Of a stretch of DNA of 64,000 nucleotides, positions 1-52,020 are shown one piece after another (the first letter of the stretch is position 1; each line of letters starts with the position of its first letter). The notes under the pieces are model-generated. The model worked only from the letters and a program-made list of their open reading frames with translations. It was not told the origin of the DNA and searched no databases. This DNA comes from Escherichia coli (lineage in GTDB: Bacteria > Pseudomonadota > Gammaproteobacteria > Enterobacterales > Enterobacteriaceae): assembly GCF_003334405.1 (NCBI RefSeq), contig NZ_QOWM01000005.1. One strand, 5' to 3'. Made by a program: the position numbers and the translations under genes.

Positions 1-1155
1 TAATTTTAAAATTAATTCACCGGCATCAGGCGAATGTATCAGCGTAGCTAAATGTGAACCACACTTGCAAGAATTGAAGTTGCTGTCCACTTTAAATTTA
101 AAGCGTCCGTTAGCAACCTCAGCATATCGGTAATTTTCATTCTCACTTTTCTCTTTTAGTTCGATCCTGAATTCATTATTGATATTTTCTAAGCAATATA
201 AGAATTTTTCTATCTCATATTCGTTAGTTTCAATCCAAAGAGCAATTGCAAAACCCTTTAAGGTAGATAAATGCTTATCCGATAAGATTTTAGACAGCTC
301 AATGAAAAAATCATGATGATCACAAGTCATAGCATCGAACTCGCCCTCAAGATAATCGGCATCCACGCCTAATTTTGCAGCATAAGCCTGAATGTTATTT
401 TTTATACACTCTATAACTTCTGCTTCTGGTGGTAAATTATTTTCTGAGGGTAGGAAAACATTTTTAATACAATCTGAATTTATTCCTCTGCTTTTAACTT
501 GATCGGCATCGTAAACAGATACTATGTTCAGGCCAGAGCTATCTTTATAATGCTCAGATACTTTTTGTATATTAGATTCACCTTGTAGATTATGTAAGTA
601 ACATGTAGAGTAAAGATGTGTGTTTTTTATTTTTAAGATATATTCAAGTACAAGTTTTGCAAAGTCATCCTCTATCAGGAAAATATTTTTCCTTTCAGGA
701 GCTAAACCCAGTGCATTGAAATATCTATAATTATATCCACAATTTGATATGGTATATTTTTTGCCTTTTTTAGCTAAGACTAATACTGAGTTTAAGCCTT
801 GAGGGCTGAGTATGTGTTCAGAGTGAGTAGCCATCAAAACATTTAATTTTTTAGTATCGATTGTGTAGGCTAAAAAATCCATGAAATTTTTCTGGCTTAC
901 CGGGCAAATAAAACTCTCTGGCTCTTCAATGAAGAGGATTGAATTTTTTTCCGTATAAATAAGTTTCCAGATTGCTATAAGTAACTTATGTTCTCCTTGC
1001 CCCATACTCTCTGACGTATAAACTATATTACTGTTAACCTCTTTAACCTCAAAGTATGGGAAAGTTAAATCATCAATAATTCCTTCTACCTCATTAACTT
1101 TTACATACTCATATTTCTTGCCTGTGATTTTCTGAACAAAAAAAAAGATTTTCAT
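1..1155 (-). CDS. Distal part of an OLD/ABC-type ATPase-nuclease (Walker B, H-loop, Toprim-like motifs); 3' end lies beyond the window start
   Basis: Minus-strand frame from ATG at 1155..1153 stays open to position 1 (absent from the ORF track, translated by hand: MKIFFFVQKITGKKYEYV...). Walker B-like ILFIEEPE (~917..940), H-loop-like LMATHSEH, then NIFLIEDDF (~663..690) and VYDAD (~500..517) resembling Toprim E and DxD motifs. Confidence 0.5.
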   Translation of the reverse strand, partial: MKIFFFVQKITGKKYEYVKVNEVEGIIDDLTFPYFEVKEVNSNIVYTSESMGQGEHKLLIAIWKLIYTEKNSILFIEEPESFICPVSQKNFMDFLAYTIDTKKLNVLMATHSEHILSPQGLNSVLVLAKKGKKYTISNCGYNYRYFNALGLAPERKNIFLIEDDFAKLVLEYILKIKNTHLYSTCYLHNLQGESNIQKVSEHYKDSSGLNIVSVYDADQVKSRGINSDCIKNVFLPSENNLPPEAEVIECIKNNIQAYAAKLGVDADYLEGEFDAMTCDHHDFFIELSKILSDKHLSTLKGFAIALWIETNEYEIEKFLYCLENINNEFRIELKEKSENENYRYAEVANGRFKFKVDSNFNSCKCGSHLATLIHSPDAGELILKL

Positions 1156-1603
1156 TTAGCAAATGATAAGAATTTGATGTATTGAACCATCCATTTTTGT
1201 TTGGCGATGTGTTTATTTCGTTTATGATTTTTAATGCCATTGATGAAGCATCAAAATATTCAACATTTCTTAGTCCATCACCCAAAGACGAAGTGAAAGT
1301 TTGTTTCTCTCCATTAATTATTATATCAATGGAGATATTATCAATATCAGAAGAGCTAAAAATCCCAACATTACATATATCTTTCGACAGTATACCATAG
1401 ATAAGTTTCAATAACGACGTTTTACCAATGCCATTTCTTCCACATATAGAGGTTAAAGCTGAGTTTATCGTAATATCAGCATCTTCAAAGAGTGGTACAT
1501 TCTTAATGGATAAACTACATATTTTAATATTAAACTTTTTCCTGTTTGCCACATGATTCCAATAATCAGCTAATTTTGCCATTTTAATTGTTTCTATTGA
1601 CAT
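1109..1603 (-). CDS. N-terminal fragment of the same P-loop ATPase (Walker A), in a different frame from the downstream part
   Basis: 164-aa ORF with Walker A ICGRNGIGKTSLL (~1418..1444); stop at 1111..1109 lies 47 nt inside the 1..1155 frame; the overlap contains an A9/T9 run at 1138..1146. Confidence 0.55.
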   Translation of the reverse strand: MSIETIKMAKLADYWNHVANRKKFNIKICSLSIKNVPLFEDADITINSALTSICGRNGIGKTSLLKLIYGILSKDICNVGIFSSSDIDNISIDIIINGEKQTFTSSLGDGLRNVEYFDASSMALKIINEINTSPNKNGWFNTSNSYHLLNENLFFCSENHRQEI

Positions 1604-2799
1604 GTAGTTACCCCCGCTAAAACAGAATCTGCATAATTGTTGACGACGCTTATCAGATTCTTTTCATTTTCATGATAAAGTGCTCTATGCGCAGTTTTTA
1701 GATTATTTTTTTTCATCGTATTGAACACATCTGCTTTACTGGGGTCACTCTTCAAGAAAAATAGAGATATTATAAAGTCTCTGATGAGTAAGGAAGTACC
1801 AGTCATTACTCTTGATACAGCCCTAAAATTAAATTCTTCCAATAACTCCTTTACTTCATCTTTATTTTCACAATAAAACAATCCATCCAACACTCCCTCT
1901 TCTCTGAAAACGAATCTACCACTTTCAAAGCGGTAAAAGAAATCACTAAGGCTATCGTCTAAATTATAATTCGATTTTAAAATGGTTGAAAAAAAATAAA
2001 GCCATGAAGTTAAAGTGGCTTTTGTTATATGAACCTTACTTTCTTCACTATCAATCTTTTTCTTTGCCTTACTTAATATTAAAATGGATTTTTTTACTAG
2101 TTCTATGATTGAATTATCAAAAGGCTCATCTTCACGAGCCCTGTCGTTTAATTGCTTTTCTGTATAAGAAGCAATCAATGAATCCTTCTCAAGCATGTAG
2201 CAAAGTTTAATGAAAAGATCATGGTATGCCATCCTTTGATTACTAAAGCCTAGAAAGTGCTTGTCAAGCCCACAATCCGACATATAATCTACGAGAGATT
2301 TTATCTGGTTTCTTAAATCGCCAACATAAGCATTTCTCTTTTCTGCTGAAGTTAATTTAAGAGATTCATTCAATCTGTTGAATAGTTCACCGGGCTCTCC
2401 CTGATTGTATTCAACAATCTCAAATACTCGAATGGCATACCGTTCAAATCTGTTTTTTATTCTTTGAGGTAATTTATCAAAAGTTAATCCATCTAATTCT
2501 TTGATATCATCATCAATAGGTTCAATTAATCCATTTATTTTGAATTTATTATACATGAAATCTCTTATGGCACTTAATCGTTGCTGTCCATCGAGAACTT
2601 CTTGAATATAGGAATCTTCATTTAAAATAACATGGACAGGTGGAACCTGCCACCCTCTTAGAATAGTATCGATTAAAAGTTTTTTCTTCGGAAGTTGCCA
2701 GACTTCCGCCCTCTGGAAATCGGGTTGGAGATCTAGACTTCCTTCATGAATCCTAGAAAATATAGTCCTCAAATCTGGATCTGTAGTATTTATTTTCAT
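1594..2799 (-). CDS. DUF262 (ParB/Srx-like, GmrS N-terminal type) domain protein; no DUF1524/HNH partner domain apparent
   Basis: 401-aa ORF with LQPDFQR...VW and LDGQQRLSAI motifs (~2580..2603) near the N-terminus; start overlaps the upstream gene stop (ATGA at 2796..2799); AT-rich. Confidence 0.7.
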   Translation of the reverse strand: MKINTTDPDLRTIFSRIHEGSLDLQPDFQRAEVWQLPKKKLLIDTILRGWQVPPVHVILNEDSYIQEVLDGQQRLSAIRDFMYNKFKINGLIEPIDDDIKELDGLTFDKLPQRIKNRFERYAIRVFEIVEYNQGEPGELFNRLNESLKLTSAEKRNAYVGDLRNQIKSLVDYMSDCGLDKHFLGFSNQRMAYHDLFIKLCYMLEKDSLIASYTEKQLNDRAREDEPFDNSIIELVKKSILILSKAKKKIDSEESKVHITKATLTSWLYFFSTILKSNYNLDDSLSDFFYRFESGRFVFREEGVLDGLFYCENKDEVKELLEEFNFRAVSRVMTGTSLLIRDFIISLFFLKSDPSKADVFNTMKKNNLKTAHRALYHENEKNLISVVNNYADSVLAGVTTCQ

Positions 2800-5700
2800 T
2801 TCATTAACTCCCAGAATGCTTTATCACGCATTTTCCTAACTTTTTTATTTCCATCTATATACAGGCTAAAATGCTTCTCAAGTTGTCGTATCTGGCCCAT
2901 TAAAGACTCCTGCTCACTTTTATCGTCAATGTTAAATACCGCCTTAATGTCCGAATTCCTAATCTCAGAAACTCGATGAATTACCCAAGTGAGAATATAA
3001 GAAGCATAATTATTCTCGCCTGTTTTAAAGTGAGTAATTTCTTGTGTTGATAGAATCGCCCCTACACCATATTCACGGCCTTCTTTAAGGATTTTACGCA
3101 AGCTGGCAAAATCCTGGCGCATAAAGTTATCGGCTTCATCAACCAGAATCATTTTGGTTAACTGGCGATAATCACCTCGCACCGTCGGTTTCCCACGCTT
3201 TTGCATCTGCGCATAAAAAAGATCCAGTGTCAGTGCAACTACCAGGTTTTGAATCTCTGATGGATAACCAGCGAGTTCGATAACTGTGACTCCATCAACC
3301 AGATCGTACAAACTGGTCATCTTCTCTGGATCCGTTTCAAAAATCTGGAAACCAGCCAGATTATAAAGTGCAGCATATAATGAATCTTCGTCGACCTTCT
3401 CTTGTGCCAGGTACTGCTGCCACACATCTTCAATAGTCGGTGCTACACGATTCCATGTTGATCGATCATGAGGCACTATTCCTGCTAAGTCATAGCACTC
3501 CATTATTAACGTAACCAGCTTCATGCGTTGTTTTACGCCAAGGTTATACGCTTTGCCCATCGTTTCAGCGAATGCCATGGCCGTATGCCTCGGTAACATG
3601 GGCATATCACCAAATAACGATAACGGATTGTAAGGTAACAACGATAGCTGATACCTCTTAGCTCCCGTAGCTTCAAGAAACGCATCATCCACATAGTCGG
3701 ATTTATAGTCGAAGATCAACAAGCCAATCGGTTTACCGTCAACGTTGTAGGACTGATTGCGCATCAGTTGCGTAACCAGCGATTTAGTAAACTGGGTTTT
3801 CCCGGTGCCCATTGTTCCAATAATGCCGGTATTAGTATTCATGAACTTAGCGGTGTTGGTTGGTTCCCAGTACAATGGATTCTGACGCACAGCATCATGA
3901 CCAAACAAGATCTGTAATGGTGTATTGCGGACATTACTGGGGGTTAGTGCCGATGCTTCAGGTTGTGGAAGCTCCAGCGCAGAAATGGGCGGCGGCTCAG
4001 TTGTTGTTGCTACCTGTACTGGGTGTGAAGAATTGACATCACACTCTGGTTTGAGCAGATATTTTTCCGGCACCCGATAGCGTTCAGCTAGTGGAGGTTG
4101 ATCACCTTGTGCTGCAATTAACGATGGAAGCAATGAATAGGGGATTTCGATCTGTAGAATATTCTCTGCCGTTTCTTTATAAGAGAGATCAAAACAGGTT
4201 CCGCTGTCTACATGAGCTACCACAAAGCCTTCTGCATAATCAGCAAGCTCACCTAACTGATAGTCGCCAGTGAGCCACCATTCACGTCGTTCCAGCAGAG
4301 GGGATAGCTTGTCGTTATCCAGTACACCATACAGACGCAACTTCTCTACCTGCATTAATACTTGGCGGATAAAAAGTGCCCGGTATAGTTGTGATGCTAG
4401 AGTTTTCGGCCCAAGAATATCTTGCTGTAAATAGCGTTTTAGCTCGCGGGCCTGCTGCCCCGCATGGTTGTAATCGGGGCGAGCTCCTGTTTTTACTTCA
4501 AGTGGTAACAGATACAGGTTGTTATCTTTGAAACCGACAAAGAGCACATCGTCAGAGATCGCTCCTTTCTGATAACCCTGTAAATGGCGCGATAAATCGC
4601 TTTCTTTCATTCTCAGCCCGACGTTGCCGGACACGCGGATCATCTCAGCTACTGACAGTGGAATCCAGCAAATATCTGACTGGAGCAGCATAGACTGTAC
4701 GAATTTGTATGCACCGATAATGCCGTGTTTTTCTTTGCGCTCCTTTTCATTTGAACGCAACATTTTTAACAGCCACTCACCGTTAAAGGCATTAAATTCA
4801 GCAAGTAGTTGCTGGCTATCAACGGTGGATTGTCCTGTTTGAAGGAGACGCAGGAACAACTCAACCTGTTTTGTGACAGTTACGGCGTCATAACCAGCAC
4901 AACTGGTGTACTGGTCAGAGTAATGAATTAGTACGACATCTTTTTGACTAGTAAAGAAATCGAGTGTGACCTTAGGGTCGATAATTGTGGTCCAGAGAGA
5001 GCTATCATAAGAGCGATTCAGCAGTTGCTTAAAGTTACCGCTCACAGCCAGACTAATTCCCTGACCGTGATACTGGCTGTTGCTCTGCCGTGCCGGTTGC
5101 CACAGACAGCCTAACAAGCGGGCGAGACGCAGGGCGCAAGACGATTCAGTATCGACATTACGCAGACCAAACGCGGTAAAGTAAGCATCGCCTTGTGTTT
5201 CAGCCCCTTCGCCTGCAATCAAGCCATGACATAAAACCCCGCTGGCAGCATCCTCAATGCGAATTTGGCGGCAATCAACCGGTGCGGTGTTGGTGAAAAA
5301 TGCGAGATGGGCGTAAGCCAGTTGATCGCTTTCCGGTGGCAGGATAAATTTGCTGAATGTTAAGCGACTGCGAAGCAGATCGATCAACATATCGGCTTCA
5401 GAACGCCACGCACCGCTGTTCAGACCAAGATCATTTTTAAGTTGTTCATAGCTGCCGCTTTCGGCAAAGCGGTCAAAGGCATTGGGTAGCAGACGTTCGT
5501 CATAGCAGTTTACGTGTATCGAAATTGCGTTATCTTTTTCCTGCTTAAAATAATCTACCAGTCCCAGGAATAGCTCTCTGGCTTCTCCCATATTAATAGC
5601 ATTAATAACCAGGGCATTATTTCCTGCACTCTGGAACAGCCGAGAATAGGCATCTGTAAATTCGTTTAGCTTGTCTTTCACCAGACGCTTAACATATTCG

Positions 5701-7880
5701 TGGCTCATCTGGCGCTGGGGAACAATATCTATCCAGAAGCGGTTTTCTACCATCGGTTGTAACTGTGCGTATTCATGTTCGCTATGATACACAAATGGCA
5801 TTAGGCCAGAGACGACCAGACGATCTAGAGTAATCTCTGGTAATGAAGCGAAGGAAGCTGATGTGGGGTATCCGGGCTCGGCGATAATAGTTTCAGCTAG
5901 CTGTAAATGATAAGCCATTACCAATGGGTGCAGAGGCGAGAGACGTTCATAATCGTCGCCGCGGCAAATCCCCAGATGTAACAGACGTTTTTCCTGGATG
6001 GTTAATGCTCTGCTTAGACTGATTTGCTGTAATGCCTGTTCAAAAGTAGCGATCATGTGACTGACTAATACACGATATTCTGCTGACCATGACACCAGAC
6101 TCGGCAGGGTATTTCGACGTTGATAGTAAACGAACAATTGGTGGTACGCATTATGGAGGTCGGGATAGCTCGCCAGAAGCTCATCCAGTGCAAACTCACT
6201 ACCATTACTGCCAGTGCTGAGCAGATTACGCTCGATCAGGGCGTACTCTTGCATAAGCAACTGCTGGCGAACACCAACCACATTATGTTCGATATTGTCC
6301 AGGATGACGCGACCTTTCAACTTGTTCCAGGTTGCATTCCCTTCTTCTTTAAAGAGTTTATTGAAACGACCCTGATCAAAAAGCAGAGGCAGTGTTAATC
6401 CTTCCTCTGCTCCTGGACCTTCGATGTTAAACAGTAAACGGGAGTCACCTGAAATCAAGGTAAATTTGATCAGCTCACTTTGATTCGCCAGCGTTTCAAA
6501 ATTAACGAGTGCATAATGGCGGCAATCAACATCATCACTTTCTTCATCAAGTAAACAGGTCTTGTCGCCGAACTCTGCAATACGTAACTCATTATCTTCC
6601 AGTTGCAGAGTTAATTGACCTTTACCAGGTTCAATACGATAACAATGCTGGATTTCATTAAGCCAGAATTGCCCTTGTTCAACTAACAGCAGGCGAAACT
6701 TGTACTCTTCTGCTGAGTTATTGCGGTTAATGATTTCGAGGCTAAAGAAGCAGGGCCGACCATCAAAAGGCACTGATGCCAGTATCTTAGAGTTTCTCCC
6801 CCCGAGCCGGCTAGTACGCCAGAATCGTTCTTTCTGTAACGGACGATGATGAGCAATTTTTACCTGATTGTCCTGAAGGTCGTTACCCTGGAAGATAAAC
6901 TCCAGCTCAACTTGTGACTGCCCCGGTAGAACCTGAACCAGGACACTGATATCTCGTTTACCTGCTTTACTGGTGCTTTTGGCTCTTTGCCAGACCTCAC
7001 CGTTTTCAGCAGTAATGTTTTCCAACACCAGTTTCTGTTCACTGTTTTGTGCTTTTTCATTCAGGTAGACGGAGAAATCAAGCTCACGCCAATCGTCATT
7101 GTCAACGAAATGCTCCTGAATGAATTTTGCACTAAATTCAGTTAGTACATTCTCCAGTTGCCCGCTGTAGCGTTCAACACTGTCCTCTATCTGGCGATAT
7201 AACTTTTGGTTTTCATTGAGCCGGGCGCGCAACTGCTTATCACTAAAATTCAGCAGGTTATTATCGTTGAATAACTTTAGCTCTGAGAAATCCAGATTGC
7301 CGTCGTCCAGCAGACGGTATAACGATGAAAATCCAAAAACCGTAGCGCCTTCATCCAATATTGTTGTCAACTGATCGCCCAGCAAACAGCGGGATACTTG
7401 AGAACGGGCGCTGTCCGTTGTGATTAACTTTTCGAGCTGGTGACGGAAGGTTTCTGGATGCCAGATAGCATCCGGTGCAGCGACATCTTTGGTACTATTG
7501 AGTAAGGTATCCAGCATGCTGTTGTGGATAATCAACAACGCTGTCTGGGCAAAAATGCCATTGCGGCCAGAAACCTGATCGCGTAAATGAGAAATATAGT
7601 TTTCTGTGAATGCAGGGGTAGTGGTGCCGTGCAGTACCGGAATAAGCTGGATATTATTACATTGGACGTAGGTAAGAAATTGCTCCGGTGCAATTTCTAG
7701 TTTATTTCCATTTGCTAAAGAGTCGAAAGCCTTCCAGAGCTTTAAGGCGTTATCCGGATCGGGAGATTTAAACTGGTAGCGCTCACCAGGCTGGATGATG
7801 CTGCTAACCCATTCAATGAAGGTTTCTGCCAGATAGGTTTCATACTGTTTTACGGACATATACGGCGTCTCCACTGTCAC
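2796..7880 (-). CDS. Large (1694 aa) island protein with C-terminal HerA/FtsK-type P-loop ATPase; possibly DptH/DndH-like
   Basis: Walker A GTMGTGKT (~3795..3818), Walker B ILVDEAD (~3129..3143), then REYGVGAILSTQ (~3028..3080) resembling the HerA/FtsK arginine-finger and TQ motif. Candidate PD-(D/E)xK motif VLFVGFKD...LPLEVK (~4491..4540). Start could instead be the Met at 7859. Confidence 0.65.
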   Translation of the reverse strand: MTVETPYMSVKQYETYLAETFIEWVSSIIQPGERYQFKSPDPDNALKLWKAFDSLANGNKLEIAPEQFLTYVQCNNIQLIPVLHGTTTPAFTENYISHLRDQVSGRNGIFAQTALLIIHNSMLDTLLNSTKDVAAPDAIWHPETFRHQLEKLITTDSARSQVSRCLLGDQLTTILDEGATVFGFSSLYRLLDDGNLDFSELKLFNDNNLLNFSDKQLRARLNENQKLYRQIEDSVERYSGQLENVLTEFSAKFIQEHFVDNDDWRELDFSVYLNEKAQNSEQKLVLENITAENGEVWQRAKSTSKAGKRDISVLVQVLPGQSQVELEFIFQGNDLQDNQVKIAHHRPLQKERFWRTSRLGGRNSKILASVPFDGRPCFFSLEIINRNNSAEEYKFRLLLVEQGQFWLNEIQHCYRIEPGKGQLTLQLEDNELRIAEFGDKTCLLDEESDDVDCRHYALVNFETLANQSELIKFTLISGDSRLLFNIEGPGAEEGLTLPLLFDQGRFNKLFKEEGNATWNKLKGRVILDNIEHNVVGVRQQLLMQEYALIERNLLSTGSNGSEFALDELLASYPDLHNAYHQLFVYYQRRNTLPSLVSWSAEYRVLVSHMIATFEQALQQISLSRALTIQEKRLLHLGICRGDDYERLSPLHPLVMAYHLQLAETIIAEPGYPTSASFASLPEITLDRLVVSGLMPFVYHSEHEYAQLQPMVENRFWIDIVPQRQMSHEYVKRLVKDKLNEFTDAYSRLFQSAGNNALVINAINMGEARELFLGLVDYFKQEKDNAISIHVNCYDERLLPNAFDRFAESGSYEQLKNDLGLNSGAWRSEADMLIDLLRSRLTFSKFILPPESDQLAYAHLAFFTNTAPVDCRQIRIEDAASGVLCHGLIAGEGAETQGDAYFTAFGLRNVDTESSCALRLARLLGCLWQPARQSNSQYHGQGISLAVSGNFKQLLNRSYDSSLWTTIIDPKVTLDFFTSQKDVVLIHYSDQYTSCAGYDAVTVTKQVELFLRLLQTGQSTVDSQQLLAEFNAFNGEWLLKMLRSNEKERKEKHGIIGAYKFVQSMLLQSDICWIPLSVAEMIRVSGNVGLRMKESDLSRHLQGYQKGAISDDVLFVGFKDNNLYLLPLEVKTGARPDYNHAGQQARELKRYLQQDILGPKTLASQLYRALFIRQVLMQVEKLRLYGVLDNDKLSPLLERREWWLTGDYQLGELADYAEGFVVAHVDSGTCFDLSYKETAENILQIEIPYSLLPSLIAAQGDQPPLAERYRVPEKYLLKPECDVNSSHPVQVATTTEPPPISALELPQPEASALTPSNVRNTPLQILFGHDAVRQNPLYWEPTNTAKFMNTNTGIIGTMGTGKTQFTKSLVTQLMRNQSYNVDGKPIGLLIFDYKSDYVDDAFLEATGAKRYQLSLLPYNPLSLFGDMPMLPRHTAMAFAETMGKAYNLGVKQRMKLVTLIMECYDLAGIVPHDRSTWNRVAPTIEDVWQQYLAQEKVDEDSLYAALYNLAGFQIFETDPEKMTSLYDLVDGVTVIELAGYPSEIQNLVVALTLDLFYAQMQKRGKPTVRGDYRQLTKMILVDEADNFMRQDFASLRKILKEGREYGVGAILSTQEITHFKTGENNYASYILTWVIHRVSEIRNSDIKAVFNIDDKSEQESLMGQIRQLEKHFSLYIDGNKKVRKMRDKAFWELMK

Positions 7881-9165
7881 TCATTCTCTCCACATTTCCC
7901 ATGCGTTCATAAAACGCAACCAGCATTTGTGTAGACTGGTTATCCAGATAAAATCCGCGTTGCTCAAAACCACGTAGCAGCTCATGCAGACGGAGTTTTT
8001 TGTTTTTACCCACGGTAAGGTTAGTTAGTAGCAGTAGTCGATCCTGGTTCAGTACCAGCACTTTCCCCGCTCGGCCACGAACCTGAATGAAGTCAGTGCA
8101 AATCTGGCTTTCCAGCTCGTTGATGTATTTGCGATTTACCGCTGCTCGCTCGGTTTTCTTACCCTGAAACTGTTCAACGGCAACAGATAACAGCTGTTTA
8201 AAGGCATCTTCCAGGTTTGTAGCACGATCGCGTTCAGGAAGGTCTCGCTCCTCCTTACTAATGAACTTCTGTATATAATTATTGAGTTCATTTAGTACTC
8301 GATTCGATGTATCTGAATAACCTAAGCAATCTTGATATACCTGCCAAAGAGGGCGCTTTTCCTCACCTTTTACTTGTAATACCTCTAATGCAGAGAGTAC
8401 GGGGAATAATTTTTCACTTTGGCGGGCAAACCACTTATAGCCGAAGAGCTTTATTTTATCTCGTTCGGAGCTAGCTTTTTCAGTATCGAGGATAAAGAAC
8501 AATGATTTACTCTGCGGCTCGCCGTCTTGCCAGTTGTCCAGATTGAGCGCCAGTTGTGCGCACCAACTAAAGGCATACAAACGTAGAGTATTGGTCAGCT
8601 CCTGCAAAAGATATTGTGGGTGCTCTGCCAGAAACGCCAAATCAGACTGAAAACACGTTACCAGATAGGGTAAATAAGGTTGTTCTTTTGCAAATGGCCC
8701 CTCACCCAGTCGGATTAATTTTTTATTGAGCTTATTCAGCATCTCTTTTTCAATAAAATTCAACTTATCTTGTATCGGGTTATTAAGGCTAAAATCTCTC
8801 ATCAAATTGGCAAACAGTGTTCCAAGGCGTTTGTCGGCAGTCGAGCCTGCACTTATCTTTTCACCATCAAACTGAGCGTGGAACAGCAAGAACAGCGGGG
8901 AGACACGAAAAATATCCTGACTGGAAAAATACATCCGTTCCAGCACGGACAAGAACGCAGGTTCATCGATCAATATTTGCAGATGAGTTTTACAATCCTC
9001 GCGAAACTGCTCGAGACTGTATGTATCGATTTTATACTTCACGGCATAGCTCAGTACTAAACCTGTGACGATTTGCCAGTCAATATTGTTATTCTTATTA
9101 CGTATTGGAAGGTAGCTATCCAGCTGGTTATTACTAACTTTTAAATTTGTTGCAATGGGATACAT
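7840..9165 (-). CDS. 441-aa island protein with no recognisable motif; possibly DptG/DndG-like
   Basis: ORF sits 4 nt downstream of the 549-aa gene and overlaps the 1694-aa gene start by 41 nt; AT-rich codon usage. Confidence 0.6.
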   Translation of the reverse strand: MYPIATNLKVSNNQLDSYLPIRNKNNNIDWQIVTGLVLSYAVKYKIDTYSLEQFREDCKTHLQILIDEPAFLSVLERMYFSSQDIFRVSPLFLLFHAQFDGEKISAGSTADKRLGTLFANLMRDFSLNNPIQDKLNFIEKEMLNKLNKKLIRLGEGPFAKEQPYLPYLVTCFQSDLAFLAEHPQYLLQELTNTLRLYAFSWCAQLALNLDNWQDGEPQSKSLFFILDTEKASSERDKIKLFGYKWFARQSEKLFPVLSALEVLQVKGEEKRPLWQVYQDCLGYSDTSNRVLNELNNYIQKFISKEERDLPERDRATNLEDAFKQLLSVAVEQFQGKKTERAAVNRKYINELESQICTDFIQVRGRAGKVLVLNQDRLLLLTNLTVGKNKKLRLHELLRGFEQRGFYLDNQSTQMLVAFYERMGNVERMSDSGDAVYVRKTV

Positions 9166-9169
9166 GATG

Positions 9170-10819
9170 TTATCCCTCCATGCCGCTGATAGTAATCATG
9201 TCATCGTCCGCTCTTGCACTATAGACCCGCTTTAGGCCATCATAAAACTTGATTTCGCTGCTGGATTTTGCCTTTTCTGCGATTAGTTCAACGATTTCGT
9301 CCAGTAAGACAATCGCACTTTTATCATACTTATTAGGGCGATAGCCATTATTTAGTTTGCTCAATAGCTCAAATAAATTAAGACCGATCCGAATCGGATC
9401 TAGCGGATCTTGTCCTACTTTTAAATAGATATCGAAACAAGTTGTATGGGCTGTATTTTTCTTGAGAATTGAATCCCAGTCCGGTTTCAGCGCAACAGGT
9501 GCTGTGATTTTAATCCCACCAAATTCGCCTAAAAAGAACTCTTCTTTTTGGGTACTCAGTTCAGGTGCTTTACGGTTTGCGTAACGCTGAATACCAGCGA
9601 TAAGCTCGAAAGAGTAAAAGCGGTTTAGTGTTCTTTTTTGTTCCGGATCTGCGGTATAGTTTTTATGCAGATGCCAAATCTCTGAATAACGCTCAAAGAG
9701 CGCTTCTTTAAAGAATACAGAGAACCTTTTGTGATAGTTATTCCCTAAAGATTCATGTTGTAGTAGCCAGAAAAGTCTAATTAATGAAGCTGCGTCACCA
9801 GGCTTAACACATTGACGATCAAACGTAAGATGTAATTTCGCAAGTGTACTCAGAAAATCATCCAGTTCGGGATCAACTAATCCAAGCTCATAGCGCAAAA
9901 TAAATTGATCAATCTCGTATGTATGCAATCTGGCAGGATCAAAATCAGAAACCTTTTTAATTAGATCATTCTCTGCACCATTAAACAGATTATCAAACAG
10001 GTACCCAGGCCCTGTCAGCAGGTGGTGTAAAAAATCCAATAAGGTTCTTGTGGTAACAAATTGATCTTTTATTAATCGGGCTTTAAATAGCTGTGTTATT
10101 AAAACATTCTGAACACCGGGCATGCACAGTAGTTTAAAGTTAGCAACGGTTTTTAAATCATGTCCTATTGATTCATCACGTTGATAAATTGTGTAAAACA
10201 GGTTTTTGTCGTCATTCCCCGTTAATTGATTCATTAATTTTTTGATAAAAGGGGAGTATTCCCGCTCTTCGTCAAACTCGAACTTTGGATAATGTTCGAA
10301 ATCAAAAAATATACAATTTTCGTTGCGGTAAGGACGCTGGCCTTCCTGTTGCGCTGACAAGAATGAGTCAATAGCAGCACGGATAGCCATATGGGACTCA
10401 GAACCTTCTCTGGCAAAATTGGCTAGCATCCCGGTGTTGATACCGATGAGGAGCGGGTATGATTGCGAATGATGATTTTCAAATAAATCATTCAGTGCAT
10501 CGATAGCCGATTGTTGAGGCGCAAAGCTATGTGTCGCATCCAGATGGAAACTAAACTTCTGTTGATATTGTGGATCTGACTTACAGCGGGTTAAAATTTC
10601 GGATTTCCCGTCTCCACTACTTCCGCATAGAAAAATGATCTCACCGGGAGTAGCTGTATCCAGATAACGCTGTAACTCTTCTTCAATCTCTTGTTTAACA
10701 AAGAGTTGTTCTTTTAGCTCATCGAACACATCCTTTTGCCGATGAGTTTCTGTGGTTACGGAAAACGAAGATGACTTCGCAAGTACACCTAACGCTTTAC
10801 GTAATGTGATCGCGCTCAT
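9170..10819 (-). CDS. 549-aa P-loop NTPase, first gene of the island operon; possibly DptF/DndF-like
   Basis: N-terminal P-loop FLCGSSGDGKSE (~10597..10630); first ORF downstream of the 209-bp gap after the integrase. Confidence 0.6.
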   Translation of the reverse strand: MSAITLRKALGVLAKSSSFSVTTETHRQKDVFDELKEQLFVKQEIEEELQRYLDTATPGEIIFLCGSSGDGKSEILTRCKSDPQYQQKFSFHLDATHSFAPQQSAIDALNDLFENHHSQSYPLLIGINTGMLANFAREGSESHMAIRAAIDSFLSAQQEGQRPYRNENCIFFDFEHYPKFEFDEEREYSPFIKKLMNQLTGNDDKNLFYTIYQRDESIGHDLKTVANFKLLCMPGVQNVLITQLFKARLIKDQFVTTRTLLDFLHHLLTGPGYLFDNLFNGAENDLIKKVSDFDPARLHTYEIDQFILRYELGLVDPELDDFLSTLAKLHLTFDRQCVKPGDAASLIRLFWLLQHESLGNNYHKRFSVFFKEALFERYSEIWHLHKNYTADPEQKRTLNRFYSFELIAGIQRYANRKAPELSTQKEEFFLGEFGGIKITAPVALKPDWDSILKKNTAHTTCFDIYLKVGQDPLDPIRIGLNLFELLSKLNNGYRPNKYDKSAIVLLDEIVELIAEKAKSSSEIKFYDGLKRVYSARADDDMITISGMEG

Positions 10820-11028
10820 AACTTCATGTTCTCTAAAGAAAGAATATCCTTATTCTATACAAGCTAACAATTGAGCACCATATGCCTTTTTCTCCAGGTA
10901 CGTTCAATACTCTGCAGAACTACCTGAAACCAATGCGCGGACAGCTACCATCATGAAATTGTTGCAACTTTGACCAACGAGCCTACTTAACAAAGTGTGA
11001 CGGTAGGCTCTATTTTTGTTACACAGCT
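10820..11028 (-). promoter_or_regulatory. Intergenic region between integrase 3' end and first operon gene; likely holds the operon promoter
   Basis: 209-bp non-coding AT-rich gap; I did not identify a convincing -35/-10 pair or a terminator hairpin. Confidence 0.3.
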
Positions 11029-12297
11029 TTAGCGCTTTAACGACGCAAAAATTTTGGCAAAATCAAACGGGCTAATCACTTTCTCGCGATTTACATCTAG
11101 AAAATCCGCCCACCACTGCAACATCAATCTTCTCTCATCCAAATGTTCTGCCTTATGGATATAAGCCGCTCGAACGGAGTTACGTTCCATATGGCTCATC
11201 TGACGCTCTACCGCATCCCTCGACCACAGCCCTGACTCAATCAGCGAGCTACATGCCATAGTCCTGAAACCATGCCCACAAACCTCTACCCTAGTGTCAT
11301 AACCCATAACGCGCAGCGCCTTGTTCACCGTGTTTTCACTCATCGGTTTACGCGGATCATGATCGCCAATGAAAACAAAATCGCGCTCGCCACTAAGCTT
11401 GTGAACCTGTTTGAGGATTGCCAGAGCCTGATGAGACAATGGCACCAGATGAGGTGTGCGCATTTTAGAACCACGTTGAGAGTGCTTCACTCCTTCGATA
11501 GCTTCTCGTTCTGCCGGTATCGTCCACATTGCCGTATCGAAATCGATCTCAGACCAGCGGGCAAAGCGCAATTCACTGGAACGAATGAAGATTAATAAGG
11601 TTAGCTCAACAGCCAGGCGGGTCAAAGGGCGTCCCGTGTAACCGTCAATTCGGTGGAGCAGTTCAGGTAGACGTTTCAGCTCAAGTGCAGGGCGATGGAC
11701 ACGGTTACTGGAAGCAACTGCGCCAGCCATCTCTTGAGCCGGGTTGTAATCAATCAGCCCACTTTGTACCGCATAGCGCATGATTGCTGTGGTTCTCTGC
11801 TGAAGGCGAGAAGCAACTTCAAAGCGGCCTGTCGCTTCCACGATTTTTATGGGTGCAAGCAGGTCACGAGTTTTTAGCTCTTCGATACTTCGTCTGCCAA
11901 TTGCCGAGAACAAATTGTCCTCTAAGCTCTTCAATACCCTTCGGCTGTGTTCTTCGGACCATTTCTTATTAGTAGCGTGCCATTCTCTGGCAACTGACTC
12001 GAAGGTAATAGCCTCTTTCGCCTGTTCTTCTTTCACAGCACGTTTATGCTCGCGAGGGTCGATTCCAGCAGCAACAAGTCTCCTAGCCTCTTCTCTTTTT
12101 TGACGGGCATCAGCCAGTGAAGTTTCAGGGTAAACACCGAAAGCCATCAGGTGTTGCTTGCCACCGAAGCGAAAGCGGAACCGCCAGTATTTTGAGCCGT
12201 TGGGATGAATCAGCAAAAACATGCCATCCCCATCGACTAGGGTGTACTCCTTTTCCTGCGGTTTCGCAGAACGTACTTTAGTATCTGTCAGAGCCAT
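11029..12297 (-). CDS. intB: P4-type tyrosine integrase (IntB-like), apparently intact
   Basis: 422-aa ORF next to a tRNA 3' end; the C-terminal region (around ...EVCGHGFRTMACSSLIESGLWSRDAVERQMSHMERNSVRAAYIHKAEH) has tyrosine-recombinase-like R/H..R/Y spacing; position matches P4-like tRNA-associated integrases. Confidence 0.85.
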   Translation of the reverse strand: MALTDTKVRSAKPQEKEYTLVDGDGMFLLIHPNGSKYWRFRFRFGGKQHLMAFGVYPETSLADARQKREEARRLVAAGIDPREHKRAVKEEQAKEAITFESVAREWHATNKKWSEEHSRRVLKSLEDNLFSAIGRRSIEELKTRDLLAPIKIVEATGRFEVASRLQQRTTAIMRYAVQSGLIDYNPAQEMAGAVASSNRVHRPALELKRLPELLHRIDGYTGRPLTRLAVELTLLIFIRSSELRFARWSEIDFDTAMWTIPAEREAIEGVKHSQRGSKMRTPHLVPLSHQALAILKQVHKLSGERDFVFIGDHDPRKPMSENTVNKALRVMGYDTRVEVCGHGFRTMACSSLIESGLWSRDAVERQMSHMERNSVRAAYIHKAEHLDERRLMLQWWADFLDVNREKVISPFDFAKIFASLKR

Positions 12298-12496
12298 AAA
12301 AGTTCTCCTTCCATGTGCCGCTGTGAGTATACAACCATTATCGAACCAGCATATATACTCGGTTCTATACTCACAAGCGACTTGATGTGGGTTGACTCAG
12401 ATTGACTTCTGTTGAAAGGAAAATCGCGGAAGGCCTTGTATGACGGGGATTTCAGGCATAAAAAAAGACCTCAGTTGAGGTCCATTTACATGCTTT

Positions 12497-12581
12497 TGGT
12501 GCCGAAGGCCGGACTCGAACCGGCACGTATTTCTACGGTTGATTTTGAATCAACTGCGTCTACCGATTTCGCCACTTCGGC
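12497..12581 (-). tRNA. leuX: tRNA-Leu (leuX)
   Basis: Plus strand reads TGGTGCCGAAGGCCGGACTCGAACCGGCACG...GCCACTTCGGC, the reverse complement of an 85-nt tRNA-Leu with CCA end at the low coordinate facing the integrase. Confidence 0.9.
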
Positions 12582-12776
12582 ACTGAAGAGGTATGCGGAA
12601 AACGTTGTGAATTATACCTGTCACGCACCACCATGCAAGCGCCAGCTTGCTCGCACCTCGCTAAGTGCTGAAATTTTCAGCATTGCATACCGCGATGTGT
12701 AACCTTTGTCACACTCCAGGCACCCCGCCCTGCCATGCTCTACACTTCCCAGACAACACCAGAGAAGGACCAAAAA

Positions 12777-13796
12777 ATGTCGATGATAAAAAGCTATGCC
12801 GCAAAAGAAGCGGGCGGCGAACTGGAAGTTTATGAGTACGATCCCGGTGAGCTGAAGCCACAAGATATTGAAGTGCAGGTGGATTACTGCGGGATCTGCC
12901 ATTCCGATCTGTCGATGATCGATAACGAATGGGGATTTTCACAGTATCCGCTGGTTGCCGGGCATGAGGTGATTGGGCGCGTGGTGGCACTCGGGAGCGC
13001 CGCGCAGGATAAAGGTTTGCAGGTCGGTCAGCGTGTCGGGATTGGCTGGACGGCGCGTAGCTGTGGTCACTGCGACGCCTGTATTAGCGGTAATCAGATC
13101 AACTGCGAGCAAGGTGCGGTGCCGACGATTATGAATCGCGGTGGCTTTGCCGAGAAGTTGCGTGCGGACTGGCAATGGGTGATTCCACTGCCAGAAAATA
13201 TTGATATCGAGTCCGCCGGGCCGCTGTTGTGCGGCGGTATCACGGTCTTTAAACCACTATTGATGCACCATATCACTGCTACCAGCCGCGTTGGGGTAAT
13301 TGGTATTGGCGGGCTGGGGCATATCGCTATAAAACTTCTGCACGCAATGGGATGCGAGGTGACAGCCTTTAGTTCAAATCCGGCGAAAGAGCAGGAAGTA
13401 CTGGCGATGGGTGCCGATAAAGTGGTGAATAGCCGCGATCCGCAGGCACTGAAAACTCTGGCGGGGCAGTTTGATCTCATTATCAATACTGTGAACGTCA
13501 GCCTCGACTGGCAGCCTTATTTTGAGGCGCTGACGTATGGCGGTAATTTCCATACGGTCGGTGCGGTTCTCACGCCGCTGTCTGTTCCGGCCTTTACGTT
13601 AATTGCGGGCGATCGCAGTGTCTCTGGCTCTGCTACTGGCACGCCTTATGAGTTGCGTAAGCTGATGCGTTTTGCCGCCCGCAGCAAGGTTGCGCCGACT
13701 ACCGAATTGTTCCCGATGTCGAAAATTAACGACGCCATCCAGCATGTGCGCGACGGTAAGGCGCGTTACCGCGTGGTGTTGAAAGCCGATTTTTGA
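12777..13796 (+). CDS. ahr: NADPH-dependent aldehyde reductase (zinc alcohol dehydrogenase family)
   Basis: [19 protein letters not shown]... with CGICHSDL zinc motif; start taken at internal Met of the 353-aa ORF. Confidence 0.9.
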
Positions 13797-23034: not shown

Positions 23035-24549
<1,515 letters not shown>

Positions 24550-24552
24550 TTG

Positions 24553-24872
<320 letters not shown>

Positions 24873-51904: not shown

Positions 51905-52020
51905 GAGTATGGTTTGCCGGATGCGGTGCACCTGTAGGCCTGATAAGACGCATCAAGCGTCGCATCAGGCACTATGCTCAAATGCCGGATGCGGCGTGAA
52001 CGCCTTATCCGGCCTACGCA
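51905..52020. repeat. REP/BIME element
   Basis: GCCGGATGCGGTG...GCCTGATAAGACGCATCAAGCGTCGCATCAGGC...GCCGGATGCGGCGTGAACGCCTTATCCGGCCTACG. Confidence 0.8.

Follow-up and report, generated by a model that had tools for sequence, protein, structure and literature searches.

The 64-kb stretch of Escherichia coli DNA considered here, taken from contig NZ_QOWM01000005.1 and hereafter called the window, carries near its low-coordinate end an intact tRNA-Leu gene, leuX, with a P4-type integrase gene (int) directly 3' of it on the same strand and, beyond int, the first genes of a defence island. The segment from 11029 to 12600 is an attL-type junction, that is, the left attachment (att) site of an integrated element, with leuX as its bacterial half. 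The features of this junction, read from the core chromosome towards the island, are as follows.

12777–13796, + strand: ahr (yjgB), the core gene nearest to leuX on the side away from the island (open reading frame, ORF; annotation of identical DNA)
12497–12581, − strand: leuX, tRNA-Leu(CAA), intact (ARAGORN; Rfam tRNA, 59.4 bits; tRNA-Leu annotated in identical genomes)
12497–12516, − strand: att core of 20 nt, GAGTCCGGCCTTCGGCACCA, the final 20 nt of leuX and the same as the annotated P4 attP core (NC_001609, 4078–4097)
12459–12483, − strand: intrinsic terminator of leuX, hairpin GGACCTCAACTGAGGTCT (12466–12483) followed by a T7 run (terminator scan; inverted repeat search)
12366–12375, − strand, and inverted 12322–12331, + strand: candidate arm-type or operator sites of the integrase, TGTGAGTATA, in the P' arm (15-nt inverted pair, 93% complementary)
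12351–12360, − strand: candidate third site, GAGTATATAT, in the P' arm
11029–12297, − strand: int, P4-family tyrosine integrase of 422 aa without internal stops (ORF; Pfam; alignment with P4 Int)

ARAGORN reports a single tRNA gene in the window, leuX. From its 3' CCA end at 12497, a 199-nt spacer leads to the int ATG at 12297, both genes lying on the minus strand, and an AGGAG motif stands 8 nt 5' of that ATG. The att core coincides with the 3' end of the tRNA gene; GAGTCCGGCCTTCGGCACCA is single-copy in the window even at up to 3 mismatches, and no further copy of the tRNA 3' end is present anywhere in the 64 kb. The leuX terminator sits in the island-side (P') arm and is hence supplied by the island. 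It is kept in the attL of ES1, of uropathogenic E. coli (UPEC) 536 and of HCP6S3_I1, and is degenerate in the distal copies of the site described below. Scanning of the junction with Rfam returned the tRNA only. Over 10800–12700 the window matches many complete E. coli genomes at 100% identity, and there tRNA-Leu, the tyrosine recombinase WP_001219052.1 (labelled 'tyrosine-type recombinase/integrase' beside tRNA-Leu in RefSeq) and dptF are annotated, while the high-coordinate flank is core E. coli sequence comprising ahr, idnK, idnDOTR, yjgR, lptGF and pepA. The preliminary description of this DNA had placed an island junction at the leuX 3' end, and that placement is borne out, down to the last 20 nt of the gene being the attP core of P4.

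The integrase itself had been described as P4-type, full length and free of internal stops, which proved correct. The 422-aa protein (Int) shows a three-domain architecture in Pfam, consisting of Arm-DNA-bind_3 (PF13356, 4.9e-29), Phage_int_M (PF22022, 4.9e-28) and Phage_integrase (PF00589, 4.8e-19), and is 57.7% identical to P4 Int at 97% coverage (E = 1e-158, tblastn against phage records). The catalytic set of tyrosine recombinases is R-K-HxxR-H-Y. The residues to which these roles are assigned from established knowledge, R239, K278, H342, R345, H369 and Y379, are all six invariant in the pairwise alignment with P4 Int, so that the loss of catalytic residues, named in the preliminary description as a refuting finding, is not seen. 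In addition, the N-terminal and central domains match the solved CP4-like integrase domains PDB 3ju0, 2kkv and 3jtz. The NCBIfam model PRK09692 gives 280 bits, under its cut-off of 434 bits, and PADLOC yields no match to the integrase, as expected. Judged from its sequence, a catalytically intact integrase is supported. An index of public assemblies has the exact protein in 3,476 blocks, and in all ten contexts listed it occupies the ahr–leuX site. About 400 complete genomes carry this int allele, and Salmonella houtenae has an Int homologue of 72.7% identity. An intact integrase adjacent to a tRNA gene is, by itself, weak evidence of present mobility.

Beyond int, the cargo of the island continues towards the window start with the following genes.

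9170–10819, − strand: dptF, phosphorothioate (PT)-dependent restriction (NCBIfam TIGR03238 equivalog, 439 bits, cut-off 50; PADLOC DndF)
7840–9165, − strand: dptG (TIGR03236, 301 bits, cut-off 20; PADLOC DndG)
2796–7880, − strand: dptH, 2796–7859 with the RefSeq start (TIGR03237, 1210 bits, cut-off 620; PADLOC DndH)
1594–2799, − strand: DUF262/GmrSD_N protein, between the dpt and dnd genes (PADLOC NsnA, 3e-33, and PD-T4-2_A; Pfam GmrSD_N)
1–1603, − strand: AAA_15 ATPase or 'ATP-dependent nuclease', running off the window start and frameshifted (ORF; comparison with B7A)

All three dpt genes are present and full length, and the guanine-cytosine (GC) content is 31–48% in the cargo versus ~50% in the core. 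Positions 1–12600 of the window differ from E. coli B7A at 3 positions, and the gene order is alike in both: leuX, int, dptFGH, DUF262, ATPase and then, in B7A, dndEDCB. These dnd genes lie directly past the point of the window start in B7A and in eight other genomes, and no relative that keeps the cargo is without them. The island is thus the already published B7A-type dnd/dpt phosphorothioate restriction-modification island, which the preliminary description did not recognise. The dnd-encoding island of B7A was reported as a mosaic of 53.3 kb at a leu tRNA, headed by the integrase gene (Ho et al. 2015, PMC4373003). In the same study, the integrase allele was restricted to dnd-positive genomes, and only int, dpt and dnd were specific to dnd-positive strains, the island interior (fec, IS66, Ag43 and yee genes) being common to dnd-negative genomes too; the study further reports islands at thr and phe tRNAs (PMC4373003). 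In B7A, a fragment of the insertion sequence (IS) IS3 lies at the dnd boundary of the int-dpt-dnd module. The composite island of the relatives further contains an alpA-like gene, yfjI, a GTPase gene, Ag43, yeeS/T and cbeA/cbtA, a typical CP4 module, together with the fec operon and flanking IS remnants.

The second att copy had been expected as a direct repeat of the tRNA 3' end beyond the window start, and the relatives make it possible to look there. Searches of the window and of 90 kb of B7A for the tRNA 3' end (23-, 18-, 16- and 12-mer), allowing mismatches only, gave nothing significant; an 11/12 match at 36307 of the B7A segment was rejected as chance, its expectation being 0.29 and flanking similarity being absent. 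These searches missed the true distal copy because of the 15-nt insertion that it carries. With short-word blastn and the whole spacer as query, a collinear match was obtained ~52 kb from leuX in B7A. It reads TTTGAGTCCGGCCTTCG(CACCTTCG)2CACCA, lies in direct orientation relative to leuX, and retains 14 exact nt of the leuX core, or 17/18 nt of the repeat of the type found in pathogenicity island (PAI) II536. The terminal CCTTCGGCACCA of the core is replaced in the distal copy by an 8-nt unit, CCTTCGCA, repeated three times, and the number of units varies, with 3 in B7A-type genomes (B7A segment 17775–17809) and 5 in ES1 (segment 7477–7519). The ~200 nt past the distal copy are 75–85% identical to the leuX–int spacer, yet no integrase follows; past this spacer relic come a fragment of a PT-DNA-binding (SBD-type) restriction endonuclease gene, an HNH endonuclease gene and a truncated nanS.

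In ES1, the same point is the edge of another CP4-like element, and homology to B7A stops exactly at the distal copy; in many genomes, moreover, the live leuX–int spacer is of the 'relic' type. Both observations support the distal copy as a real recombination boundary, which would be the right attachment site (attR) of the island in its present form as well as an attL relic left by an older element. No internal att copy that would end an 18-kb minimal island was found at the dnd/IS3 boundary. The earlier expectation consequently stands in part: the other end does lie beyond the window and, in the relatives, in direct orientation, but the repeat is not a clean one. What exists is a degenerate copy with 14 exact nt plus CCTTCGCA x3 and a PAI II536-type arm, 33–53 kb away in five of nine related genomes and deleted in the other four. 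These nine, all carrying this integrase allele, made up the survey of the far end.

B7A: distal copy present, 52.0 kb from leuX
EC416: distal copy present, 50.7 kb from leuX
SW071610: distal copy present, 32.8 kb from leuX, shortened by IS66
JNEC-KY180: distal copy present
OkiPb01677: distal copy present
WEM25: distal copy absent, deletion abutting IS66, into fimA
HUM3355: distal copy absent, deletion abutting IS1, to nanS
210221272: distal copy absent, IS1 within dptG, deletion to fim
HCP6S3_I2: distal copy absent, IS1 directly after int, deletion to fimC

Each of the four losses coincides with a deletion abutting IS1 or IS66, and several more IS1 truncations occur among the ten listed contexts of the exact Int. 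Among the four nearest relatives of the window (99.8% over island and core), three have the distal copy and one does not. Such a pattern suggests that the island probably decays by IS1- and IS66-associated deletions, not by precise excision.

The arms that flank the two core copies were compared as well. On the int side, the candidate sites lie 25–78 nt 5' of the int ATG, in a layout like that of the P4 P' arm, where two direct and one inverted arm repeat stand at the int start. The 10-mer TGTGAGTATA occurs twice in the 64 kb, only at these sites, against 0.05 occurrences expected, and the TGTGAGTATA and GAGTATATAT sites would accordingly be read as putative arm-type or autoregulatory sites of Int. 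Three control systems each use a single motif: P4 has GGGGGCA in both arms; UPEC 536 (PAI II536) has TGTTGGTA-type repeats in the int-proximal and distal arms, with an uninterrupted 18-bp repeat, GTTCGAGTCCGGCCTTCG; and ES1, whose Int is 84% identical to that of the window, has TGTGAGTATA in both arms. In the B7A-type island, by contrast, the same candidate repeats do not recur in both arms, the int-proximal arm bearing TGTGAGTATA and the distal arm a tandem pair of GTGTTGGTAT. This distal arm is 94% identical to that of PAI II536, whereas the P' spacer of the window is only 65% identical to the spacer of 536, the integrases being 77% identical. Judged by these motifs, the composite island has hybrid arms of two integrase types.

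To look for precise excision, the junction expected after it, consisting of the B' side of the distal copy, an intact leuX and ahr, was built and searched in 5,426 complete E. coli genomes. It is contiguous in one of them, HCP6S3_I1 (leuX at NZ_CM149868.1, 3949307–3949391), which is also the only genome of the set with a leuX that is not trailed by an integrase-bearing island; leuX in E. coli is therefore almost always occupied. HCP6S3_I1 belongs to a different lineage that lacks the idn operon beside ahr, and it has a chimeric junction, in which the initial ~55 nt that follow the CCA, terminator included, are of the window attL type. The sequence then shifts to the B' type within a shared T-run/TGAAATCC stretch, i.e. 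in the spacer and not in the core, which looks like the signature of homologous exchange in the spacer instead of a core crossover. The pair HCP6S3_I1 and HCP6S3_I2, considered as siblings that might document an excision, was ruled out, as the two are of different lineages, the former having different alleles and no idn operon and the latter, which has this int, an IS1 deletion from int to fimC. Among the 5,426 complete genomes there is accordingly no evidence of precise excision of the island or of a precise empty-attB polymorphism. The island genes within the window include no recombination directionality factor (Vis, AlpA or Xis), and a 68-aa AlpA-like protein (PHROG 'excisionase and transcriptional regulator', 4.5e-9) is found ~38 kb from int in B7A, EC416, HUM3355 and OkiPb01677. 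The suggestion in the preliminary description that the island 'may still be excisable' thus finds no comparative support and is not upheld, the sole island-free leuX having a chimeric junction and the losses being IS-linked; these observations speak against it and are not decisive.

Taken together, the findings point, with a probability of roughly 0.7, to 11029–12600 as the attL of the known B7A-type leuX island, in which Int is intact by sequence, the composite is probably anchored in the chromosome, and decay proceeds through IS-associated deletions. An ~18-kb low-GC defence module headed by int, with dptFGH, the DUF262/ATPase pair and then dndEDCB past the window start, would have arrived as a P4-like integrative element, its predicted function being phosphorothioate DNA modification and PT-dependent restriction. 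Its attP core would have recombined with the leuX 3' end, regenerating the tRNA and bringing in a new terminator, and the insertion would have taken place ahead of a resident PAI II536/KpLE2-like island. The distal att of the module and the resident integrase would have been lost later, with the IS3 fragment now at the module boundary. What presumably remains is the present 33–53-kb composite, with a window-type P' arm (TGTGAGTATA) at attL and, at the far end, a PAI II536-type P arm (GTGTTGGTAT) joined to a core broken by CCTTCGCA x3. This history of tandem integration and subsequent attR loss is inferred from the hybrid arms, the IS3 fragment at the dnd boundary, and the specificity of int, dpt and dnd to dnd-positive strains (PMC4373003).

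Several points weigh against an anchored composite and its proposed history. In most relatives, the composite island encodes a candidate excisionase of AlpA type, and the 14 exact nt (17/18) kept by the distal copy come near the length of the repeat, 18 bp, that is sufficient for PAI II536. TGTGAGTATA is a motif related to GTGTTGGTAT, and Int may recognise both. At the frequencies reported for the PAIs of strain 536, 10^-5 to 10^-6, excision would go unseen in assembled genomes. Moreover, the window stops at position 1, and the far end of its own island is taken from relatives that are 99.8–100% identical. Replacement by homologous recombination via flanking DNA, finally, would yield the same arrangement as tandem integration and deletion.

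It is against this background that a still functional composite has to be considered, in which Int and the AlpA-like factor encoded ~38 kb away would recombine the core with the distal copy and excise a circle of 33–53 kb. Int appears intact, with its complete catalytic set, and the distal copy is direct and shares 14 exact (17/18) nt with the core, but CCTTCGGCACCA of that core has been swapped for the 8-nt array. The distal arm does offer a tandem arm-repeat pair at a P4-like distance from the core, but its motif, GTGTTGGTAT, is unlike the TGTGAGTATA of the int side, and cognate systems carry one motif in both arms. PAI II536, with an Int 77% identical and a near-identical distal arm, has been shown in experiments to excise from leuX and to insert there again (PMC3202238), and the 68-aa excisionase-like protein is present in B7A, EC416, HUM3355 and OkiPb01677. 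Still, a clean empty site occurs in none of the 5,426 genomes, every loss examined is a deletion abutting IS1 or IS66, and the far end is gone in 4/9 genomes with this integrase allele. Excision of the composite by its own integrase is, on balance, unlikely. A role for int in placement might also be denied altogether, with int-dpt-dnd acquired and spread purely by RecA-dependent homologous recombination, the homology being provided by flanking core on the ahr side and by shared island DNA on the fec/IS side, and int persisting as an undecayed, unselected passenger. The near-invariance of the island (3 differences in 12.6 kb) beside adjacent core that differs by ~0.7–1% fits recent transfer between lineages. 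Also in favour of this reading are the constant chromosomal site of the exact Int in the ten contexts listed, the sole integrase-free leuX junction, chimeric within spacer homology, and an island interior (fec, IS66, Ag43 and yee genes) that is common to dnd-negative genomes (PMC4373003). Such recombination would account for spread within the species and not for the first insertion. The attL is precisely what site-specific integration predicts, with a regenerated tRNA, an identical P4 core, and a terminator and candidate arm repeats before int. Furthermore, SE11 and 55989 have at leuX dpt/dnd modules that are divergent (77% DNA identity) and come with P4-like integrases of their own, and these, together with the islands at thr and phe tRNAs (PMC4373003), point to repeated integrase-mediated capture. 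A mere passenger int is, on balance, quite improbable.

As for the CCTTCGCA array, it could be imagined as the scar of out-of-register, integrase-catalysed strand exchange in the overlap region, rather than of simple slippage, an idea that must be regarded as a long shot. If it were true, the array would mark the crossover site of this integrase family, and array expansion with arm swapping would be a general route by which leuX islands become locked in the chromosome. A candidate stretch for strand exchange in an excision junction may be GAGTCCGGCCTTCG.

Some observations concern the surroundings of these sites. Just outside the distal att, dnd-negative UPEC 536 has a full-length gene (segment 12762–13634) whose product is a 'phosphorothioated DNA-binding restriction endonuclease'; the gene is cut to a 150-nt fragment in dnd-positive B7A-type strains (B7A segment 17146–17295), as well as in ES1 and HCP6S3_I1. 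An island that modifies DNA with PT and a PT-dependent nuclease would be mutually incompatible. In ES1 (segment 12893–16287), a second, degraded integrase and P4-like 'beta' and 'sce7726 (cII-like)' genes lie between the leuX-proximal integrase and the rest of a >70-kb island, which indicates that several P4-like elements have accreted in tandem at leuX.

Within the cargo, the DUF262 protein and the ATPase form a pair between dptH and dndE with matches to the PADLOC models NsnA/PD-T4-2_A and HEC-04/NsnB/GajA-like, and may constitute a two-gene defence system in its own right, nested within the dnd/dpt island. An island variant of 95% identity (FORC_041, JNE082640) is without this pair. In the ATPase gene, a run of A8 in B7A is A9 here at 1138, leaving a 5' ORF of 164 aa (1109–1603) versus 536 aa in B7A. 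The split gene is also found in GCA_024592625.1, and the AAA-ATPase gene of EC416 begins within the B7A reading frame; because of these two parallels, the frameshift is probably real and not a sequencing error. Elsewhere in the window, gathering-level Rfam matches lie at 23596–23790, 24624–24795, 41645–41760, 51937–52014 and 58177–58255. They comprise Ysr276, an antisense small RNA family, four naRNA4/REP-type elements, two of which stand in tandem in the pepA–holC interval, and the Mg2+ riboswitch of the mgtA leader.

Compared with known systems, the closest is the B7A island itself (PMC4373003; also in dndDB, PMC2663466). Its DNA is essentially identical, and its published length, 53.3 kb, fits the 52.0 kb that separate leuX and the distal copy in the present measurement. 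The strain of the window differs, with flanking core ~99% identical, and so does its ATPase gene, with the homopolymer frameshift. In the text of PMC4373003 that was searched, direct repeats, leuX and excision are not mentioned; the island is already known, and its degenerate, mismatched att structure is worked out in the present analysis. The main use of these results is a correct annotation, by which the left 12.5 kb of the window become a published dnd/dpt defence island with an apparently intact integrase. They also offer a worked example of how a tRNA island may become fixed, through erosion of the att core, arms of mixed integrase types and IS-associated deletion of the far end.

The likeness to P4 extends from Int (57.7% identity, the same three domains and catalytic residues) and the identical 20-bp core to the order of the parts, in which the core is followed by a P' arm of ~150–200 nt, with direct and inverted arm repeats, and then by the int start. 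The arm repeat, however, is GGGGGCA in P4 and TGTGAGTATA here; the island has a defence system as its cargo and none of the P4 genes alpha, cI, sid, psu and delta for replication, immunity and capsid size, and no vis lies beside int. PAI II536 of UPEC 536, for which excision and integration at leuX have been demonstrated experimentally (PMC3202238), shares the tRNA, a P4-like Int (77% identical) and a distal arm that is 94% identical, including the tandem GTGTTGGTAT. It differs in that each of its arms bears TGTTGGTA-type repeats and its 18-bp repeat, GTTCGAGTCCGGCCTTCG, is uninterrupted, whereas here the motif on the int side is another and the distal core is broken by the array. Its cargo consists of virulence genes, that of the present island of defence genes. 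The composite island also presumably resembles the K-12 element KpLE2, with intB at leuX, and the CP4-44 and CP4-57 modules. What sets it apart from these is its integrase allele together with the 18-kb dpt/dnd module beside it, both of which are specific to dnd-positive strains (PMC4373003).

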